Below are positions 6,290 through 10,418 of a stretch of 20,020 nt of DNA, in pieces. The notes under the pieces were generated by a model. It was not told the DNA's origin. It saw only the letters and a program-made list of their open reading frames with translations, and did no database searches. Source of the DNA: Candidatus Heimdallarchaeota archaeon (lineage in GTDB: Archaea; Asgardarchaeota; Heimdallarchaeia; Heimdallarchaeales; Heimdallarchaeaceae). Location: contig JAEOTE010000101.1 in the NCBI GenBank assembly GCA_016839945.1, positions 1 through 20,020 on the forward strand, read 5' to 3'. Position numbers and translations under genes: made by a program. Numbering within the stretch: the stretch's first letter is position 1; each line of letters opens with the position of its first letter.

Positions 6290-6412
6290 GCGGGGATAGC
6301 CAAGTAGGTCAACGGCGGCGGACTTAAGATCTCGGCTTATGCCAGAAATAAGGGTTAGATAAGCAATCCGTTCCTTAGTGGTTCGGGAGTTCGAATCTCC
6401 CTCCCCGCACCA
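6290..6412 (+). tRNA. tRNA-Leu(UAA) with 37-nt canonical 37/38 intron (6329-6365); CCA encoded
   Basis: GCGGGGA-TA-GCC-AAGTAGGTCAAC-GGC-G-GCGGA-CTTAAG[intron]A-TCCGT-long variable arm-GGGAG-TTCGAAT-CTCCC-TCCCCGC-A-CCA. BHB with central helix CUUA/UAAG and bulges AG|A and CA|A. Confidence 0.96.
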
Positions 6413-6463: not shown

Positions 6464-6556
6464 TTTAACTCATGGGTTAAACACATTTACCCTTCAATTA
6501 CAACAGATTAACCCAATGATTAAGAATATAATCTAAATGATTAAAAAAACGATTAA
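6464..6556. promoter_or_regulatory. Palindrome plus paired direct repeats upstream of the bactofilin-like genes (candidate operator region)
   Basis: Near-perfect 18-bp palindrome TTTAACTCATGGGTTAAA (6464-6481), a third half-site TTAACCCA (6508-6515), and GATTAA at 6506, 6518, 6539 and 6551. Confidence 0.35.
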
Positions 6557-6590
6557 ATAAAGGCATGATATTTGTATTTTGGTGAATTAA

Positions 6591-7487
6591 TTGGCAAAGC
6601 ACGAAATCAAAATGTACGAAGAGTTACTAGAACTCCTTGAAAAGAGGTACAAAGATGGTGAAATTGACAAAGAAAACTATAACGAATTAAAAGAACGTTA
6701 TTTAGCAAAATTGGAAGGTGCTAAGAAGGATTTTGAAGTTCATAAGGAAGCTTCTCAAATCTACACTTCTGGAGTTAAGGTAATGACTAATGGTTCTGTA
6801 TCTGCAGCAGGTTCTACAAGAATTACAGGGGGAGAAGTCCCTAAAGACATACGAATTGCTGGTTCAGGAAAAATTGAAAGTGATGTTATCTGTAATCAAT
6901 TTAAAACAGCTGGTTCCTTAAAGAGTTCTGGAAATATTACAGCTCGTGGAGATGTAAGAGCTTCTGGATCTTTTAAATGTGAAGGTTTTCTTCAAACAGA
7001 TAAGGATGCAAAGTTTTCTGGGTCTGCAAAGATAGACAAAGATACTGTAGTTCAAGGAAGATTAACTGCTGCTGGAAGTTTCAAATGTAATGAAAATGTA
7101 CAAGCAGAAGTTGGGGTAAAATTTGCAGGTTCCTCCAATATTGGTGGAAGTTTATTATCCCAAGGAACTGTTGAAATAGAAGGAAAAACACAAATAGCAG
7201 AAAATCTTGTTGGAGAAGATGTTTTAATAAACAAAGGAAAAGAATCATTATTCTTTAGACGTAAAAGACTTAGTAAATCTGAAATAGGAAAAGATGTTTT
7301 TGCAACTGGTGATGTGTATATAGCAAACACAAATGTGAATGGAGATGTAAAAGGAGTATCTGTTGAACTTGGTCCTTACACTAAAGTCTATGGAACAGTG
7401 TTTTATGTTGAAAGATTTGATGTAGATAAAAAAGCGGAATTAGTAAATGAGCCAGTTAAGATAAGTAGAGAAAAATTACAACTTTAA
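6591..7487 (+). CDS. Bactofilin-like (polymer-forming cytoskeletal, YhbE/YhbF-type) beta-solenoid protein with N-terminal SHOCT-like domain
   Basis: TTG start after GGTGA. N-terminus LELLEKRYKDGEIDKENYNELKERY fits the SHOCT pattern. About 8 GS-initiated 17-18 aa rungs follow, then a C-terminal 'NTNVNGDVKGVSVELGPYTKVYGTVFY' bactofilin-like segment. Confidence 0.72.
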   Translation: MAKHEIKMYEELLELLEKRYKDGEIDKENYNELKERYLAKLEGAKKDFEVHKEASQIYTSGVKVMTNGSVSAAGSTRITGGEVPKDIRIAGSGKIESDVICNQFKTAGSLKSSGNITARGDVRASGSFKCEGFLQTDKDAKFSGSAKIDKDTVVQGRLTAAGSFKCNENVQAEVGVKFAGSSNIGGSLLSQGTVEIEGKTQIAENLVGEDVLINKGKESLFFRRKRLSKSEIGKDVFATGDVYIANTNVNGDVKGVSVELGPYTKVYGTVFYVERFDVDKKAELVNEPVKISREKLQL

Positions 7488-7507
7488 AATTATGGAGTGA
7501 AATTAGA

Positions 7508-8401
7508 ATGTCAAAAGAACAAATTAGTGAAAATGAAGAAATAGTGGAAAGAGCAATGATAAGCTCTGCAGGAAGTTTAAGAGAAGACGAAGAGAGAATC
7601 AAAGTTTCCGGATCTGCCAGCATATCTAGTGGAATGGTTGATAAATTTGTAAAGATTTCAGGATCAGGAAAAATAAATGGGAATTTTCAATGTAATGGAA
7701 TTAGAAGTTCTGGATCCTTGAAATGTTTGGGAAGTTTGGTTTCTAATGGTATCTCAAAGAGCTCGGGCTCTTTTAGTATAGATGGTAATTTATCATCAAA
7801 GGATTATGTTAGAAGTTCAGGCTCTTTTAGTATAAATGGGAATCTATCAACACAAGGTTTTGTTAGAAGTTCAGGTTCATTTAGAGTTGGAGAGAATCTA
7901 AAAGGAGATAGTGATGCCAAATTTGGCGGTTCAGCAAAAATTGGTGGAGAGATTACAATTCTAGGATTATTAAAATCCTCAGGCTCACTTAAAGTAGAAA
8001 GAGGTGTACAAGCCGAAAATGGGTTTTTAACTTCTGGTTCTGCATACGTTGGAGGTAATCTTCTATCTCAAGAACGTGTCGACATGAAGGGTTCAGCGAA
8101 AATAAATGGTGATGTAACAGCAAATGATCTTTTTACAGGTTTTAGAAGATGGTGGAGAAATATACGAATAGGAAGAAAGTTCAAATACCCATATAAGATT
8201 CATGGAAATGTTTTTGCAAAGAATTTCGTTGAACTAAATAACACTCTTGTAGAAGGGGATGTTAAAGGAAAAAATGTGAAAATAGGTCGTCGTTCTCAAG
8301 TTACAGGTAAAATATACTTCGCGGAAACAATTAAAATTCATAGAAGAGCAAAAATATCTGTAGAACCTACTCAAATCACAGAAAATGATCTTAGTTTGTA
8401 A
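7508..8401 (+). CDS. Bactofilin-like beta-solenoid protein, paralogue 2
   Basis: About 10 GS-initiated 17-18 aa rungs and C-terminal 'NTLVEGDVKGKNVKIGRRSQVTGKIYF'. Collinear with the upstream paralogue but lacks the SHOCT-like segment. GGAGTGA Shine-Dalgarno upstream. Confidence 0.72.
   Translation: MSKEQISENEEIVERAMISSAGSLREDEERIKVSGSASISSGMVDKFVKISGSGKINGNFQCNGIRSSGSLKCLGSLVSNGISKSSGSFSIDGNLSSKDYVRSSGSFSINGNLSTQGFVRSSGSFRVGENLKGDSDAKFGGSAKIGGEITILGLLKSSGSLKVERGVQAENGFLTSGSAYVGGNLLSQERVDMKGSAKINGDVTANDLFTGFRRWWRNIRIGRKFKYPYKIHGNVFAKNFVELNNTLVEGDVKGKNVKIGRRSQVTGKIYFAETIKIHRRAKISVEPTQITENDLSL
7760..7900 (+). repeat. Imperfect 54-bp tandem repeat (about 2.6 units) encoding 18-aa solenoid rungs
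   Basis: GGCTCTTTTAGTATA at 7766 and 7820; TGTTAGAAGTTCAGG at 7807 and 7861. Both spacings are 54 bp. Confidence 0.85.
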
Positions 8402-8480
8402 TTTGGGTACTTGTATTTTATTCTTTACCCACAAAACAAAATCTTCTTTAATCTCTCTTTTCTTCTTTTTTTGATTATTC

Positions 8481-9848: not shown

Positions 9849-10418
9849 ATGCTACGACATTATTTTGTTATTAATGCACCGCCACTTTCATTTTCAAAAT
9901 CTGAATTATATCTACAAAATTCAAAAATCAACCCAATGGGACCTTTTATCAAAGCAATATCAGATGCCTTTTTCTTATCAAACCAGTTTCGTAAAAACAA
10001 TTTTGTATATTATTGTACAGAATACAAAAAAACGCAGTATATCGTTACTTTTAATGGAGAAACTCTAAAGTATTTGGGACCAAGTTTTTTCTCTTCAGCT
10101 CATCTTTTATTAAGAGTAAAAAATCATATCAAAGATTCAAAATCAAGAAGTGGAAAATTAACTCCAGGGCTTTCTGTTTATAAGAAAGACACTAATTGGA
10201 TTTTTGAAAAACACACCAAAGATATTTGGATAAATATTATCAAGAGTGATTCTATCACAGAAGAATATCTTTTAACCGATTCAAAATCATCATATGTTTT
10301 CTTTTACAATTTTGAGGACAAAATTCCAAATCACAAAGCAATTAAATTATCTTTGGGATCCCTTGATATAGATGAACAAGTAATTCTAACTAACTATTTC
10401 ATTGAGAGTTTGATGTAA
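9849..10418 (+). CDS. trmY: TrmY-like tRNA (pseudouridine54-N1)-methyltransferase (SPOUT), divergent
   Basis: AFFLSNQFRKN, G.TLKYL.P, TPGLSV and LSLG resemble TrmY. It sits at a usual TrmY position directly upstream of pus10 (stop adjacent to ATG). Confidence 0.65.
   Translation: MLRHYFVINAPPLSFSKSELYLQNSKINPMGPFIKAISDAFFLSNQFRKNNFVYYCTEYKKTQYIVTFNGETLKYLGPSFFSSAHLLLRVKNHIKDSKSRSGKLTPGLSVYKKDTNWIFEKHTKDIWINIIKSDSITEEYLLTDSKSSYVFFYNFEDKIPNHKAIKLSLGSLDIDEQVILTNYFIESLM

Follow-up and report, generated by a model that had tools for sequence, protein, structure and literature searches.

Bactofilins, the described proteins closest to the two genes considered here, are widespread in archaea (bioRxiv 10.1101/617639). 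The genes, A (6591–7487, 298 residues) and B (7508–8401, 297 residues), lie co-oriented on the plus strand of contig JAEOTE010000101.1 (assembly GCA_016839945.1) of a member of the Heimdallarchaeaceae, whose relatives include Heimdallarchaeota AB_125, Candidatus Heimdallarchaeum endolithica and Candidatus Heimdallarchaeum aukensis. The stretch analysed, called the window, comprises positions 1–20,020 of the forward strand; coordinates are window positions unless a locus handle precedes them, and the features described between 6290 and 8455 are on the plus strand.

The canonical bactofilins (PF04519/DUF583), such as BacA of C. crescentus (2n3d) and TtBac of T. thermophilus (6RIA; Deng et al., bioRxiv 10.1101/617639), are small cytoplasmic proteins with no nucleotide-binding motif. 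Their right-handed, three-faced β-helix has six windings of about 18 residues and is flanked by disordered tails, and a hydrophobic N-terminal membrane-targeting motif is typical in bacteria, if not universal. Longer solenoids of about 13 windings form a BacEF-like cluster, which has archaeal members (PMC11459167). In B. subtilis, BacE and BacF (YhbE/YhbF) are a tandem pair (PMC4627819), encoded in one operon together with a regulator, BacR (PMC11459167; PMC4627819; PMC13649987). Characterised archaeal bactofilins include HalA and HalB from Haloferax volcanii. HalA, of about 300 residues, is built of two equal six-winding sub-domains placed head to head and joined by an α-helical hairpin linker, the internal element that acts as a membrane-targeting sequence (PMC11459167). 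Some HalA homologues are mentioned in Asgard archaea in the same paper, and a full-text literature search returned no paper treating Asgard bactofilins beyond that mention.

A and B were first picked out in a prediction made from the DNA sequence alone. It took archaeal and long bactofilins to be little explored, which is only partly true: the halofilins and the archaeal 13-winding members had been published, and the family had been annotated.

Family and fold of A and B

A and B are members of the bactofilin superfamily by sequence and by modelled fold. Pfam family PF04519 (Bactofilin), with a gathering cut-off of 27.9 bits, matches A at 32.0 bits (E 1.5e-7) and B at 42.9 bits (E 6e-11), both above the cut-off. 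When the proteins were searched in pieces, the Bactofilin hidden Markov model (HMM) matched the N-terminal, middle and C-terminal thirds of B separately, and residues 65–137 of A. A profile built from the B family has as its best solved relative C. crescentus BacA (PDB 2n3d, E 0.0016), the match falling on the C-terminal module. The nearest clusters of the ESM-Atlas are archaeal “polymer-forming cytoskeletal” proteins, 90% of them with PF04519, with template modelling (TM) scores of 0.78 and 0.81 over 268 residues. The family already bears the label “polymer-forming cytoskeletal protein” in NCBI, UniRef and JGI. No FapA, MinC_C or Hexapep match was returned by Pfam for either protein at E ≤ 1.

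The two proteins are paralogous, with 32% identity over 267 columns in BLASTP (E 6e-40). Both are made of regular rungs. GS dipeptides recur at a spacing of 17 or 18 residues, 7–8 times in A and 10–11 times in B; the BLOSUM autocorrelation has its peaks at lags of 18 and 36. AlphaFold2 (AF2), run with family alignments, gave models with a mean predicted local distance difference test score (pLDDT) of 91.7 for A and 92.2 for B. Rung counting on sequences and models together gives about 12–13 windings in A and 14–15 in B, against six in a canonical bactofilin; at a rise of 4.8 Å per winding, the rods would be about 6 nm (A) and 7 nm (B) long.

The domain order of A in its model is as follows. 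Residues 1–54 (6591–6752) form a two-helix hairpin, with helices at 2–21 and 27–54. Residues 57–213 (6759–7229) are β-strand triplets making up about nine β-helix windings, in agreement with the rung spacing and the Bactofilin HMM. A basic loop with a short helix, modelled at a low pLDDT of 65–81, occupies residues 214–229 (7230–7277). The C-terminal sub-domain, residues 230–298 (7278–7484), has about 3.5 windings (230–278), the conserved motifs YYV and EP.QI, and a short terminal helix. In the model of B, an acidic, disordered N-terminus leads into about 11 windings (residues 18–210; 7559–8137), followed by a basic and aromatic loop (residues 211–228; 8138–8191; pLDDT 58–72) and a C-terminal sub-domain homologous to that of A (residues 229–297; 8192–8398), in which windings 229–277 again end in a short helix. 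The module common to A and B in the BLASTP alignment is about 70 residues long; that of B matches the Bactofilin HMM on its own (E 7.7e-4) and is the part to which BacA 2n3d aligns.

The modelled β-helices are right-handed, as in bactofilins, because they superpose at about 3 Å root-mean-square deviation (rmsd) on right-handed helices and at 11.4–11.9 Å on left-handed ones. In VIA-align, right-handed β-helices match near full length at an rmsd of 2.8–3.6 Å. The top matches are EtpA (8vba, Z 19.5, 265 residues, model range 18–294) and HMW1 (2odl, Z 18.0), and pertactin and MpAFP (3p4g) are further right-handed matches. The left-handed hexapeptide enzymes LpxD, GlmU, LpxA, QdtC and YdcK reach similar Z scores at the high rmsd. 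The sequential structural alignment crosses the loop, and so the C-terminal module is predicted to prolong the main helix in unchanged polarity, not stacked head to head as in HalA. A Foldseek search of the PDB with both models gave nothing at E ≤ 0.001, as is usual for solenoids.

These superpositions bear on another possible identity for A and B, namely a secreted or surface β-helix of the adhesin or ice-binding type, or a left-handed hexapeptide acyltransferase. High VIA-align Z scores to adhesins and to LpxD/GlmU would fit it but reflect generic solenoid shape, and the left-handed enzymes superpose at about 11.7 Å, that is, with the opposite handedness. There are weak profile matches to ice-binding proteins (E 0.004–0.04), AIDA, YdcK and LpxD, set against the missing Hexapep match and the finding that these proteins, small, basic and encoded in a cytoplasmic gene context, have neither a signal peptide nor a hydrophobic segment. 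We regard an acyltransferase, an adhesin or an ice-binding protein as very improbable and reject each in view of the handedness, the missing signal peptide and the missing family matches. The original prediction had named a hexapeptide-type fold as one of the outcomes that would contradict it, and none is seen. Its description of GS-initiated rungs of 17–18 residues, of a shared C-terminal bactofilin-like cap, and of right-handed β-helices of roughly double length agrees with the results above, as do its assignment of the proteins to the bactofilins and its suggestion of an Asgard host.

Internal loop, N-terminal hairpin and likeness to known bactofilins

The internal loop has the same position in A, in B, in a third paralogue of the genome (C, described below) and in the homologues from Loki- and Thor-type genomes and Bathyarchaeia, and it is basic in all of them. 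Averaged over the A family (39 homologues, residues 209–231), its net charge is +3.4; the mean for the B family is +3.7. Over residues 207–232 of B, the net charge is +7, with seven aromatic residues.

The N-terminal hairpin is present in A and paralogue C only and is absent from B. It contains seven of the 28 invariant columns of A, from L13 to Y37. Its likeness to SHOCT (PF09851, gathering cut-off 27 bits) is sub-threshold: the isolated A N-terminus scores 16.1 bits (E 0.0098, residues 13–37). SHOCT is found at E ≤ 0.05 in 10 of 18 family members (best 2e-4), and GvpG (C-terminus) and Tricorn_C1 score alike.

For a membrane helix or signal peptide, no 19-residue segment of either protein is hydrophobic enough, the maximum Kyte–Doolittle values being 0.59 (A) and 0.89 (B). 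The isoelectric points are 8.2 for A and 9.8 for B. The N-terminus of B is acidic and disordered, that of A is a charged helical hairpin, and neither is a hydrophobic membrane-targeting motif. A cytoplasmic location is the best explanation for both proteins, judged from these sequence properties.

With the canonical bactofilins, then, A and B share the PF04519 match, the three-faced right-handed helix, windings of about 18 residues, small size, a probable cytoplasmic location and the lack of a nucleotide-binding motif. They differ in having about 12–15 windings instead of six and an internal basic loop, which the canonical proteins lack along with A's folded hairpin, their own ends being disordered tails with, typically, the targeting motif. 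The likeness to BacE/BacF lies in the approximately 13-winding solenoids and in tandem paralogues within one operon, the two systems being compared through published descriptions. The A–B unit belongs to an Asgard archaeon and has no counterpart of BacR, and some congeners do without B. A Bacillota cluster of the ESM-Atlas (56% with PF04519) gives a TM score of 0.76 over 196 residues, at most suggestive of BacEF-like kinship. HalA resembles A and B in being an archaeal protein of about 300 residues with two bactofilin-like segments around an internal element. Whereas HalA is split equally, the models of A and B have an unequal split of 9–11 and 3.5 windings, a loop of 16–18 residues and one continuous helix of a single polarity. 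In position, the loop may be compared with the internal hairpin that targets HalA to the membrane.

Other relatives are the homologues in Asgard archaea and Bathyarchaeia, for example Lokiarch_35790. They have the family, domain order, C-terminal motif and loop position in common with B, and are 38–48% identical to it. Unlike B, they are 226–252 residues long, with two rungs fewer, are solitary genes in unrelated contexts, and have no SHOCT-like hairpin. A and B belong to a known kind of protein and represent a variant of its architecture that had not been described.

The A–B locus and the standing of B

Is B an obligate partner of A? In every congener locus recovered, A occupies the place between aspS–tRNA and srp54. 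In the first sample of the genus (19 genomes), eleven loci have A and B and one has A with a shortened, 250-residue B; in six, B was not found at the locus, and A is followed by srp54 directly. In a larger sample of 23 genomes, match counts indicate the pair in about 14. In a sister genus, g10, single-contig genomes give one match each only. The length of B varies by whole rungs: the closest relative (G016, L011:1495–2331) has a form of 278 residues, one 18-residue rung fewer than the 297-residue form here, and the homologues from Loki- and Thor-type genomes have two rungs fewer. The 250-residue form (G004, L033:4083–4835) was also aligned by read-through, and this alignment crosses an in-frame TAA; this B may be decaying.

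A phylogenetic tree places B in a strongly supported clade with the solitary Loki- and Thor-type genes, apart from A and C. Within the genus, the A sub-tree branches in the same order as that of B. Selection on both genes is purifying: the ratio of nonsynonymous to synonymous substitution rates (dN/dS) is 0.10–0.19 for A and 0.14–0.24 for B, with 0.04 for srp54. The correlation of A and B pairwise identities across genomes (r 0.95) was considered as evidence of co-evolution and rejected, since shared phylogeny accounts for it.

The original prediction proposed a two-component system. In its strict form, this would be an obligate heteropolymer: a single heteromeric filament containing both proteins, alternating or co-assembled end to end, with neither functional on its own. 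The adjacent, co-oriented and bicistronic-looking genes with nothing but a Shine–Dalgarno sequence in their spacer, their congruent phylogenies within the genus, the purifying selection on each, and the precedent of the Bacillus tandem pair BacE/BacF (PMC4627819) would all suit such a filament. The comparison of synteny and phylogeny goes the other way. An obligate pair is unlikely because B is missing at the locus in about a third of congeners, and is shortened in one further genome of the first sample, and because its nearest relatives outside the genus are solitary genes of Loki- and Thor-type genomes. Paralogue C, A-like in architecture, is likewise solitary, and the g10 genomes have their one match. 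Complex prediction for A and B gave ipSAE scores of 0.00 and 0.01, which count neither for nor against binding. From the locus counts, the tree, the single matches in g10 and the rung variation of B, it therefore follows that A is the fixed occupant of the locus and that B is an apparently co-transcribed accessory, selected yet dispensable.

The start of A is the TTG at 6591, although the in-frame ATG at 6612 is possible instead; homologues show either form. Upstream of it, an A-rich segment together with TTAAATAAAG (6543–6562) is near-invariant in all 12 aligned loci of the genus, about 30–45 nucleotides 5′ of the A start. We read this motif as a putative archaeal promoter, resembling a TFB-recognition element and TATA box (BRE/TATA). 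A Shine–Dalgarno-like GGTGA (6581–6585; GGTGA or AGTGA in relatives) stands ten nucleotides before the TTG. The spacer between A and B is 20 nucleotides (7488–7507) and holds a Shine–Dalgarno sequence, GGAGTG (7494–7499), eight nucleotides before the ATG of B; in the nine pair-bearing loci inspected, this was found alone, with no promoter-like motif before B.

Downstream of B, a T-rich tract and then a conserved motif precede srp54 (8402–8455). The motif, CAAAACAAAATCTTCTTTAATCTC (8432–8455), lies 25–50 nucleotides 5′ of the srp54 start in 12 of 12 genus loci, usually with a T-rich tract ahead of it, and it is kept alike in loci with A and B and in loci with A only. It is probably the srp54 promoter or a 5′ leader element. 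The tract and motif together may mark the end of the A–B unit and srp54's own promoter. Since a promoter-like motif precedes A, only a Shine–Dalgarno sequence precedes B, and srp54 has a conserved motif of its own, the two genes look bicistronic, with srp54 outside their unit. The operon-like tandem of co-oriented paralogues, 20 nucleotides apart and each with its own Shine–Dalgarno sequence, had been correctly recognised at the outset, as had the informational surroundings between a tRNA-Leu gene and srp54.

The family extends well beyond this locus. The B-family profile, at E ≤ 1e-15, matches 93 of 301 sampled genomes of the phylum. Within the host's family, each of the 28 other genomes sampled has a match; elsewhere, the distribution is patchy, one family having 31 of 68 genomes matched and another none of 76. 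With the same profile, a library-wide search gave 54 clusters when the threshold was E ≤ 1e-30 and 742 when it was relaxed to E ≤ 1e-10, extending into Bathyarchaeia. Lokiarch_35790 is the member carried by Lokiarchaeum GC14_75, and its UniRef name is “polymer-forming cytoskeletal protein”.

Four genes of the bactofilin superfamily are present in the genome from which the window comes (3.0 Mb, completeness 88%): A, B, the solitary paralogue C and a gene for a 400-residue GS-repeat protein. Paralogue C (contig 62, L005:753–2235) has 300 residues and the architecture of A, including the SHOCT-like hairpin. In each of the 15 Heimdallarchaeaceae loci examined, it stands divergently beside a gene for a 143-residue winged-helix protein; in 14 of these, a PUA/DUF1947 protein comes next. 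The winged-helix protein is better conserved than C; it matches ArsR HTH_5 and passes the TFIIE_alpha cut-off. A role as a dedicated regulator, in the manner of BacR for BacEF, was not adopted in view of the TFIIE_alpha match and the housekeeping-type PUA neighbour. The fourth gene (contig 62, L001:688–1890) encodes an acidic GS-repeat solenoid with a PF04519 match of 47.8 bits. Sequence JBHLQZ010000001.1 (L058), labelled “Candidatus Thorarchaeota archaeon”, has a C locus 90% identical to that of the window genome, and its C-locus open reading frames (ORFs) match G003, of the same genus; the NCBI label is probably wrong.

The upstream boundary of the A–B locus is an intron-containing tRNA gene, probably Leu(UAA), at 6290–6409 (Rfam RF00005, 46.4 bits, E 3e-7). 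Its anticodon loop, read off the sequence, is CUUAAGA, consistent with Leu(UAA). An intron is indicated because the gene is 120 nucleotides long, and presumably sits after the anticodon loop. ARAGORN reported no tRNA in the window, this gene included, whereas Rfam detects it. The neighbours of A and B in the window encode eRF1, an amino-acid-kinase-fold protein, aspartyl-tRNA synthetase, SRP54, Pus10, L21e, Rpb4, a DUF655 protein and KsgA. Relatives with A and B proteins sharing only about 50–65% identity with those of the window retain the gene order aspS, tRNA, A, B, srp54, a 189-residue ORF, pus10, L21e, rpb4. The 189-residue ORF (9849–10418), between srp54 and pus10, has no Pfam match, and its position and length (189–190 residues) are kept in distant congeners. 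Another ORF, of 200 residues (388–990), matches no Pfam family at E ≤ 0.001.

Proposed role and meaning for Asgard cell biology

The explanation that we favour for the evidence as a whole, and hold to be somewhat probable, is that A and B are cytoplasmic, right-handed bactofilin-superfamily rods, expressed from a bicistronic unit, that form a self-assembling scaffold with A as its core and B as an accessory. Each protein would fold into one continuous, three-faced β-helix, from which the basic loop protrudes before the last 3–4 windings, and the pair would be transcribed together from the conserved promoter-like motif before A. By homology to other bactofilins, their likeliest function would be to assemble by themselves, independently of nucleotide, into filaments or a scaffold beneath the membrane. 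The basic and aromatic loop is a candidate membrane- or nucleic-acid-binding element, and the N-terminal helical hairpin of A may serve in oligomerisation or bundling. The conserved core gene would be A. B would be a faster-evolving accessory paralogue with a variable number of rungs, which, in genomes that carry it, may modulate or become part of the assembly built on A. The analysis shows family membership, gene order, purifying selection, the pattern of presence and absence and, from models, fold class and handedness; polymerisation, the roles of loop and hairpin, and contact between A and B are inferred.

Several observations weigh against this scaffold. Extra conservation of the terminal windings, sought as a sign of a polymerisation interface, was not found, conservation being roughly even along A and B. 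The architecture is non-canonical in its double length, the helical hairpin on A and the short C-terminal helix on both proteins, and neither protein has a disordered hydrophobic N-terminal tail for membrane targeting. The terminal helical elements, as modelled, could cap the helix ends and block end-to-end stacking. To these points may be added the six congener loci in which A stands without B. VIA-align listed generic β-helices only, and no chain of a solved bactofilin came up in it or in Foldseek, a result that is uninformative, those chains being short.

Because helical elements are found at the N-terminus of A and at both C-termini, the main rival to the scaffold is an end-capped adaptor or ruler. 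The rods, closed by the hairpin of A and by the C-terminal strand and helix, would be non-polymerising monomers or dimers, using the basic loop to bring partners to membrane or nucleic acid. Functional analogues would be the C-terminal β-helix domains of MinC or FapA/DUF342; JGI tags some members “DUF342 family”, and one homologue, P0160, has a match to FapA (PF03961), although for A and B themselves Pfam gives Bactofilin, not FapA or MinC_C. The variable rung number of B, in forms of 278, 297 and 226–252 residues, would suit a ruler, and both the A–B locus and the C locus are found amid informational genes. Yet the short Loki- and Thor-type members start at the first rung, which leaves the N-terminal end uncapped, and all bactofilin-domain proteins tested in the literature polymerise, the divergent HalA and HalB included (PMC11459167). 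We consider an adaptor of this kind possible but rather unlikely.

The self-assembling scaffold may be extended to a bactofilin sub-membrane skeleton of the Heimdallarchaeaceae. In such a skeleton, rods of 6–7 nm would be bound to the membrane by the loop and not by an N-terminal tail, the SHOCT-like hairpin of A would bundle the filaments, and B would co-assemble and so tune their geometry, giving a hitherto unrecognised Asgard cytoskeletal system beside actin, tubulin and the endosomal sorting complex required for transport (ESCRT)-III. We judge this full picture quite improbable.

Work on Asgard cell architecture has centred on actin, tubulins and ESCRT. The Heimdallarchaeaceae are among the closest known relatives of eukaryotes, and all 28 sampled genomes, together with many Loki-type genomes, keep a conserved, selected and uncharacterised family of bactofilin-type rods. 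Whether or not these rods polymerise, the finding extends a known kind of protein incrementally and introduces no new principle. If they do not, the bactofilin fold would have been reused as an adaptor. If they do, and on membranes, the structural range of bactofilins would be widened to longer subunits, an internal loop as a possible membrane anchor and a SHOCT-like module, and the rods would be candidates for shaping the protrusions and irregular cells of cultured Asgard archaea.

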